Source: Spirochaetia bacterium
GTDB lineage: Bacteria; Spirochaetota; Spirochaetia; SZUA-6; Bin103
Reading direction: 5' to 3'
Assembly: GCA_965203905.1 (NCBI GenBank)
Contig: CBDBDQ010000005.1
Location: forward strand, 3,552,001-3,616,000
DNA length: 64,000 nucleotides
Part shown: positions 6,018-6,041 of the stretch, piece by piece
How the letters are laid out: every line of letters begins with the position of its first letter
Position numbering within the stretch: position 1 is the first letter of the stretch
Made by a program: the position numbers and the translations under genes
The notes under the pieces: model-generated
The model's input: the letters and a program-made list of their open reading frames with translations, nothing else
Database searches by the model: none
Told to the model about the DNA's origin: nothing

Positions 6018-6041
6018 TGGTTAGACAAGTGTGTTGCTGCG
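6018..6041 (-). mobile_element. Orphan cassette terminus homologous to the left end of the 18342-20438 cassette
   Basis: Minus strand CGCAGCAACACACTTGTCTAACCA vs GGCGAAAACATACTTGTCTAACCA (18342-18365), sharing an exact 13-bp run; coincides with the low-to-high GC transition. Confidence 0.7.

Follow-up and report, generated by a model that had tools for sequence, protein, structure and literature searches.

Two low-GC cassettes in a Spirochaetia defence island, one with irregular tRNA genes and one with a TIR-domain gene, as probable derivatives of a cargo-carrying IS1595-type family

The 64,000-nucleotide (nt) stretch of Spirochaetia bacterium DNA analyzed here (GCA_965203905.1, contig CBDBDQ010000005.1, positions 3,552,001 to 3,616,000; hereafter the window) contains two low-GC cassettes, one with a pair of irregular tRNA genes (the tRNA cassette) and one with a gene for a TIR-domain protein (the TIR-gene cassette). 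An earlier reading, made from the letters of the window without database searches (the sequence-only reading), had proposed that both share the same terminus and belong to one element family with interchangeable cargo. The features concerned, in window coordinates, are listed below; IR stands for terminal inverted repeat, ORF for open reading frame, aa for amino acids and IS for insertion sequence.

4603..6041, minus strand: tRNA cassette, a low-GC remnant with one IR and no transposase (GC profile, genome search)
5714..5784, minus strand: irregular tRNA gene, anticodon CCG (RF00005, 56 bits)
5624..5707, minus strand: irregular tRNA gene, anticodon UGG, with a long variable arm (Rfam, 55 bits)
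5087..5542, minus strand: ORF of 151 aa downstream of the tRNA genes, no family (ORF list, profile searches)
4713..5090, plus strand: ORF of 125 aa that converges with the one of 151 aa, no family (ORF list, profile searches)
3532..4602, minus strand: IS256-like remnant with a broken Mutator-family transposase (PF00872 on 3319-3792)
6016..6041, minus strand: degenerate IR, oriented leftward into the tRNA cassette from its outermost base 6041 (matrix scores, repeat match)
6042..6049, no strand: eight flanking bases CGGTTTGC, the would-be target duplication, second copy absent from the window
6047..6124, plus strand: RlaP-like gene fragment, where host-type DNA resumes (84% identical to window 2090-2167)
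18342..20438, no strand: TIR-gene cassette, 2097 bp, non-autonomous and of IS1595 type, with an IR at each end and the transposase absent
18342..18367, plus strand: left IR of the TIR-gene cassette (33.6 bits, independent matrix)
20413..20438, minus strand: right IR of the TIR-gene cassette (32.7 bits, independent matrix)
18334..18341, no strand: left copy of the 8-bp target duplication AAAATCCT (junction comparison)
20439..20446, no strand: right copy of the 8-bp target duplication AAAATCCT (uninterrupted site in the relative G005)
19126..19983, plus strand: passenger gene for a 285-aa protein with an N-terminal TIR domain (PF13676, E 7.1e-15)
18591..18962, minus strand: possible second passenger ORF, 123 aa as listed, no family (ORF list)

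The match on which the sequence-only reading was built is reproduced: the reverse complement of 6018-6041 is identical to 18342-18365 at 19 of 24 positions, including an exact 13-mer, ACTTGTCTAACCA, which has no sites beyond these two in the 7,986,778-base genome, and a repeat search of the window pairs arms at 6013-6035 and 18348-18370 (23 nt, 87% complementary). The position of both ends at boundaries of low-GC DNA and their inward orientation are likewise confirmed by the GC profile. The shared 13-mer by itself is weak evidence, because exact repeats of at least 13 nt are abundant in the window (196 direct and 206 inverted ones are listed, most of the inverted pairs from both arms), and such 13-mers common to different places in the window favor the alternative that the tRNA cassette merely resembles a family end by chance. 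The significance of the match derives from a wider family of ends. The minus strand carries a third, similar end at 20413-20438, and a matrix derived from the ends picks out six genome sites with scores of 28.8-37.4, the next site scoring 21.2. The six genome ends are window 6041(-), 18342(+) and 20438(-), C3:39123(-), C5:4758026(-) and C5:4758225(-), where C3 and C5 are contigs of the assembly. The scan of genome and relatives that the sequence-only reading had suggested thus yields six ends, all of them at edges of low-GC blocks; the pattern AAYAYACYTNNCTAACC occurs six times in the genome and in one of 60 relatives (G007), and its reversed control has no matches in the genome and three in two of the 60 relatives.

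The boundaries of the TIR-gene cassette are exact at 18342 and 20438 by comparison with relatives. In G001 and G007, which belong to the same genus, only about 68 nt separate the AAA_21 gene (window 16197-17438) from the Res gene (20418-23432), and in G005 a match to window 17577-18341 (91%) continues directly into a match from 20441 onward. The left junction in the window reads ...AAAATCCT followed by GGCGAAAACATAC..., the right junction ...GTTATTGCC followed by AAAATCCTCCCGC, and the empty site in G005, with the target present once, ...GGAGAATCCTCCCGC. We conclude from the perfect 8-bp duplication and the single-copy site in G005 that 18342-20438 is an insertion with imperfect IRs (read from the outermost bases, 18 of the first 23 positions agree by hand count). 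Family-type IRs at both ends and an 8-bp direct duplication make it IS1595-type, and the IRs and duplication enclose a TIR_2 gene without a transposase. Neither Pfam searches nor tblastn with 30 family transposases (E <= 1e-3) detected a transposase or a remnant of one in either window cassette; the TIR-gene cassette is therefore classed as a non-autonomous mobile insertion cassette. Its insertion target, AAAATCCT, lay at the 3' end of a Res (type III restriction) gene within a defence island, and further movement would depend on a transposase provided in trans. Of the Res ORF (ORF end 20418), the last seven codons together with the stop fall within the right IR, so the native 3' end of the Res gene has been replaced by the insertion. 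The TIR protein also matches, weakly, the PDC-S66 and ThsB-like models.

The shared terminus is the IR, about 23-26 bp long, of an IS1595-family insertion sequence. An ORF matching Zn_ribbon_IS1595 (31.7 bits, cut-off 25.4) comes 48 nt after the end GGCACTAACATACTTGACTAACC in G007, the gene itself being truncated. The family IR consensus is GGCAATAATATACTTGACTAACCA, and the 23-nt pattern GGYNNNAAYATACTTGNCTAACC matched at least 119 stretches when one genome per species was scanned, with approximately 17 chance matches expected by our own estimate. According to the titles of the 80 listed matches, 66 belong to Acidobacteriota lineages, 12 to other taxa and 2 are unclassified. Among the 119 listed loci, to which all counts of outside elements refer, paired plus and minus ends 379-4245 bp apart define 57 elements, and the 8-bp duplication is perfect in 46 of them (the others show 1 mismatch, n=2; 2 mismatches, n=2; 3 mismatches, n=4; 5-8 mismatches, n=3). 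A transposase-like coding region is present in 51 of the 57 and absent from 6, three of which (379, 482 and 1297 bp) have perfect duplications and thus represent non-autonomous copies that were mobilized. All transposase-bearing elements carry extra DNA, as the smallest measures 1967 bp, so that at least about 0.9 kb remains for passengers.

The counts of transposase and passenger ORFs cover the first 80 loci. Among 91 ORFs of at least 100 aa from 35 paired elements, 29 match PF12762 (DDE_Tnp_IS1595) and 29 match PF12760 (Zn_ribbon_IS1595), and three outside transposases score 167-179 bits on NCBIfam NF033547 (cut-off 75). Pfam passengers include DUF3800 in five ORFs, DUF6932 in two, DUF6941 in two, and single matches to DUF2513, DUF433, DUF1828, PIN, Fic, DpnI and others; the majority of the ORFs match no family. 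The PADLOC candidate-system models are represented by PDC-M63A in two ORFs and by PDC-M24B, PDC-S23, PDC-M59B and PDC-M63B in one each. The cargo catalogue envisaged by the sequence-only reading therefore contains variable passengers beside the transposase, mostly of unassigned family, and its central proposal of one element family with interchangeable cargo holds: the three IRs of the window are IS1595-type, one cassette has a duplication and an empty site, and the 57 paired elements enclose diverse passengers. By analogy with the family, a DDE transposase with an N-terminal zinc ribbon would bind both IRs, excise or copy the element and insert it via an 8-bp staggered cut, generating the 8-bp duplication.

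The same motif had suggested to us another kind of mobile unit. The attC core consensus of integrons is RYYYAAC/GTTRRRY, to which GTCTAAC/GTTAGAC in the shared terminus fits by eye, and two of the genome ends, C5:4758026 and C5:4758225, are in tandem in the same orientation, 199 nt apart. The cassettes could thus be integron-like units moved by site-specific recombination, with the shared motif as the recombination core, and like integron gene cassettes they are small, promoter-poor, variable cargo units found in arrays or hotspots. The family elements depart from integron gene cassettes in their inverted terminal repeats, their 8-bp duplications and their DDE transposase: the two copies of a pair are in inverted orientation at a distance of 0.4-4.2 kb, the flanking duplications vary in sequence and are perfect in the 46 elements mentioned above, a DDE transposase gene is enclosed in 51 of the 57, and the empty site in G005 corresponds to a simple insertion with duplication. 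On the grounds of the duplication, the empty site and the transposase we dropped the attC interpretation, which we regard as extremely improbable.

IS1595-type transporter ISs and their cassette derivatives are a known kind of element. Names of IS1595 subgroups include ISNwi1 and ISPna2. The "transporter IS" organization, i.e. IS1595 elements with passenger genes, has been described by Siguier, Gagnevin and Chandler in 2009 (as presented in PMC3129680). The outside elements resemble it in the DDE_Tnp_IS1595 domain with an N-terminal zinc ribbon, in the short IRs beginning with GG, in the 8-bp duplications and in the extra genes between the transposase and one IR; they differ from it in their tRNA passengers, which we did not find in the literature searched, and the two window elements differ in having no transposase. 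Mobile insertion cassettes are exemplified by MIC231 of Bacillus cereus (De Palmenaer et al. 2004, as presented in PMC3129680). Like these and like miniature inverted-repeat transposable elements, the TIR-gene cassette has IRs and a duplication flanking non-transposase genes and would be mobilizable only in trans, and the outside transposase-less relatives of 379-1297 bp with perfect duplications are of the same kind; unlike MIC231, whose parent family is IS4/IS231, the parent family here is IS1595, and the cognate transposase is not intact in this genome.

The end of the tRNA cassette at 6041 requires separate consideration. With an independent matrix, built from 114 ends all from outside this genome, the other five genome ends score 26.5-48.0, and the 6041 end scores 15.1 bits, which ranks it sixth in the 16 Mb of strand scanned, with the next genomic site at 13.5; with a mixed matrix it reaches 19.9 bits. 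Since the best site of a reversed-matrix control scores 16.1, i.e. more than the 6041 end, the latter is not significant genome-wide on sequence alone, in keeping with a chance resemblance at this one end, in which case the other five ends would be real and the tRNA island would have arrived otherwise. The IR also deviates from the consensus by C for G at position 1 and C for T at position 11, where 74 of 77 family ends have G and T, respectively. What makes the end credible is its context. The RlaP-like homology begins at 6047, 6 nt from the motif end (the fragment 6047-6124 is 81-85% identical to the RlaP gene of relatives), the end lies at a GC edge with the IR facing the low-GC side, and it shares with the IR at 18342, 12 kb away, the rare variants T17 (2 of 77 ends) and C9 (12 of 77 ends). 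These observations, as well as tRNA genes carried elsewhere by the same IS family (see below), argue against coincidence, which we consider quite improbable; very probably the 6041 end is a real, decayed IR.

A further alternative accepts 6041 as a genuine solo IR and denies that the tRNA genes and ORFs are its passengers, either because the interior was replaced or invaded or because an IS landed beside a tRNA island. The region is indeed heavily rearranged, with the IS256-like remnant and duplicated helicase and RlaP fragments, and the interior of the cassette matches no other member. On the other side, the DNA inward of an IR is by definition element interior at the time of insertion, and GC content is low throughout 4603-6041 with no step; moreover, the first tRNA of the cassette begins 257 nt from the 6041 end, compared with 262 nt in the single-ended family member L063, and tRNA genes lie inside the family elements L154 and L162. 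We consider this alternative unlikely, and favor the view that the tRNA cassette is what remains of another, truncated family member, with one degenerate IR left at 6041 and with the two irregular tRNA genes and the two small ORFs as its probable surviving passengers.

Several results weigh against assigning the tRNA cassette to the family, in addition to the score and the two consensus deviations of its end. As the sequence-only reading had already noted, neither a partner end nor a copy of the flanking 8-mer was found: the best plus-strand matrix score in 1-7000 is -6.4, and CGGTTTGC occurs once in the window, so that there is no target duplication; nor was a transposase remnant found in the cassette. 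The absence of partner end, duplication and transposase is also what a chance resemblance would leave. The IR is the only sequence that the tRNA cassette has in common with the other three cassettes of the genome, and a comparison of the four cassettes with the 119 listed outside loci returned one 43-nt IS3-type match and nothing else, the interior of the tRNA cassette remaining unmatched. No relative in intact form was found among 400 genomes of the phylum, in which the cassette DNA gave only tRNA-like matches of 54-87 nt, in 16 genomes. For the 151-aa ORF, a pattern scan of metagenome contigs gave 323 matches, of which none could be confirmed as a relative. More generally, the matrix search recognized no partner for four of the six genome ends, tblastn with the 30 family transposases found no intact transposase of the subgroup in the genome, and transposition of the window elements is deduced from sequence. 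Taking both sides together, we consider it probable that both cassettes derive from one cargo-carrying IS1595-type family, the tRNA cassette as a truncated and the TIR-gene cassette as a non-autonomous derivative. An 8-mer, ATAACATA, at about 4640 was considered as the left partner end and rejected, as the match read by eye fails to extend.

The sequence-only reading had attributed the loss of the partner end to IS256 activity. An IS256-like (Transposase_mut) remnant does end at 4602, its outer end lying directly against the cassette; loss through IS256-type activity is plausible, and the other side of the tRNA cassette would have been lost, with the IS256-like remnant now adjoining. The segment 4447-4602 is multi-copy in relatives, with seven copies in G004. 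A 274-nt fragment of a UvrD-type helicase gene (3258-3531) is 87% identical to 7786-8062, and diverged duplicate fragments of helicase and RlaP genes (84-87% identity) flank the IS256-like remnant together with the tRNA cassette, which indicates past rearrangement.

The tRNA cassette is present as a single copy in the genome. In its CCG tRNA (71 nt), the acceptor contains A73 and the wobble pair G3:U70, and two pairs of the anticodon stem are non-standard; its UGG tRNA (84 nt) is closest to host tRNA-Leu species (58-62 identical of 74-81 aligned positions). Ordinary tRNA-Pro(UGG) and tRNA-Arg(CCG) genes exist elsewhere in the genome, so the two cassette tRNAs are extra copies. Both align end to end with the standard Rfam model, as 7/5 cloverleaves; in the drawing by ARAGORN, a general tRNA caller, the UGG tRNA has an 8-bp acceptor and a 5-bp T stem. 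G3:U70 is the main identity element of alanine tRNAs, and the anticodon is ignored by bacterial leucyl-tRNA synthetase; on these grounds the cassette tRNAs may possibly cause Arg-to-Ala and Pro-to-Leu mistranslation.

Irregular tRNA genes are also found in other members of the family. ARAGORN at its default threshold called nine tRNAs in the 119 listed loci; the five located outside elements have ordinary anticodons, and the four inside elements are all above the Rfam 29-bit threshold (a run at a relaxed threshold gave 46 calls, many of them implausible, and was not used). The members with tRNA cargo are:

L154, element 2695-6939, duplication AAAGTTAA, intact transposase: tRNA AGC, 3349-3423 (50.4 bits)
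L162, element 907-3169, duplication CTAATTTG, transposase: two adjacent tRNAs within 2181-2395, namely CGC (46 bits) and, detected by Rfam alone, CUA of amber suppressor type (102 nt, 50.1 bits)
L063, single end: tRNA UUA of ochre suppressor type, 946-1028 (58 bits), at a distance of 262 nt from that end
L132, single end: a tRNA of marginal score (31.5 bits)

The duplications of L154 and L162 are perfect, and tRNA cargo is thus present in two of the 57 complete elements and in one or two single-ended members. The adjacent tRNA pair of L162 parallels that of the window. Irregular or suppressor tRNA cargo in the IS1595-type family, as judged from these loci, appears to be a small, repeated and unusual phenomenon, and in the literature searched we found no paper that defines an IS family as a carrier of irregular tRNAs. 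Elsewhere in the genome, ARAGORN calls a tRNA with anticodon UUA at C5:4211301-4211376 (4302-4377 of the extracted locus L167), in a low-GC block about 2.9 kb from a transposase gene of another IS1595-type subgroup (C5:4214215-4214592); a search for IRs around this call gave no convincing pair. The program also calls tRNAs of 92-93 nt at C5:1168658, 3632496, 4175767 and 6176690, in GC-rich DNA and with Arg, Cys, Ala and Asn anticodons, which may be false positives or further long-arm irregular tRNAs.

Irregular tRNAs and allo-tRNAs of missense or nonsense-suppressor type, sometimes in polycistrons, have been described from Acidobacteriota (Mukai et al. 2017, PMC5389517; reviewed in PMC7609411). 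According to these sources, the reported neighbors of such tRNAs include toxin-antitoxin genes and a transposon-related protein, a connection with transposable elements was put forward as a hypothesis, and expression of some of them in E. coli led to growth arrest; in the passages of both sources that deal with these loci, the IS family is not named and the element ends are not defined. The window resembles the acidobacterial loci in having two adjacent irregular tRNA genes in an apparently IS-derived cassette, and so do the IS1595-type elements of Acidobacteriota metagenome-assembled genomes with their suppressor tRNAs. In allo-tRNAs the acceptor branch comprises 12 bp, divided 8/4 or 9/3; the window tRNAs come out as 7/5 cloverleaves in the Rfam alignment, which is an alignment to the standard model.

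The sequence-only reading had further suggested a conflict role for the tRNAs by their association with the TIR gene. Our results do not support it: the passengers of the family are mostly of unassigned function, with few toxin-antitoxin-like Pfam matches or candidate defence matches, and to deduce a conflict role from IS ends shared with a TIR gene is unwarranted, since it relies on association alone. More telling than this association is the recurrence of irregular or suppressor tRNAs as passengers of the IS1595-type family. One might speculate that IS1595-type transporter ISs move mistranslating and stop-suppressing tRNA genes between soil bacteria, in this case across phyla, and that the window pair is not a set of spare decoders but a functional selfish or conflict module (serving, e.g., addiction or interference with genomes that invade the cell); we regard this idea as doubtful.

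With respect to origin, the cassettes have a GC content of about 45-53% in a genome of 66%, and the 23-nt IR pattern is absent from all 400 other genomes sampled from the phylum, compared with five sites in this genome. As the family is rare or absent in the phylum of this genome and common in Acidobacteriota of soils, the low-GC cassettes were probably acquired horizontally. Two further low-GC cassettes ending in the family IR are located at C3:~37900-39123 (L029) and C5:~4756290-4758225 (L030). They share internal blocks of 102 nt (82% identity) and 35 nt (97%) and a promoter-like block, TTGACCGGTTGGGAAT, and their small ORFs have no Pfam matches; the C5 cassette has the two tandem ends and is cut on its left side by an IS3-like insertion. 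No partner ends of the two cassettes were found in the matrix search. A promoter-like block at the 5' end of the 18591-18962 ORF in the TIR-gene cassette resembles the C3/C5 block by eye, but alignment did not recover it. The sole trace of a subgroup transposase in the genome is a 76-aa C-terminal remnant on contig C3 (67% identity). Other IS1595-type genes of the genome are only 34-41% identical to the family transposases and have no family ends. With no intact cognate transposase in the genome, present-day mobility is not supported, and the elements are probably immobile now. The 6041 junction is reproduced without differences in contigs of two samples that share an organism code, and the entire TIR-gene cassette lies on a single contig of the first sample; in a run under a second organism code, identity is about 97% for the cassette interior and about 95% for the left junction. 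Among 15 of the 173 contig joints, which were those listed, none skips 18342-20438 as an empty site would.

The defence island around the TIR-gene cassette comprises the following genes assigned by PADLOC:

9541-12042: IetS
12052-13041: IetA
13072-16020: type III methyltransferase (MTase_III model, 1379 bits)
16197-17438: HEC-01A
20418-23432: weak type III Res

The IetA/IetS-type pair at 9541-13041 consists of an AAA ATPase and an S8 subtilase and lies beside the large type III methyltransferase gene. Between the genes for the HEC-01A-type ATPase and for type III Res lies a variable slot (window 17440-20440; compared across loci L021-L028), which measures about 68 nt in G001 and G007 and 154 nt in G021 and contains 1.2-6 kb of other DNA in G009-G012. 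G005 has the 183-aa ORF, but its Res gene is internally deleted.

Our analysis explains two low-GC cassettes of a defence island as probable derivatives of a known type of mobile element, and the exact boundaries of the TIR-gene cassette allow its cargo to be delimited. The element family appears foreign to this phylum and typical of Acidobacteriota, which suggests transfer across phyla. For irregular tRNAs, including two apparent stop-codon suppressors, whose published link to transposable elements is loose, the IS1595-type family would provide a defined vehicle, through which their spread and function become testable.

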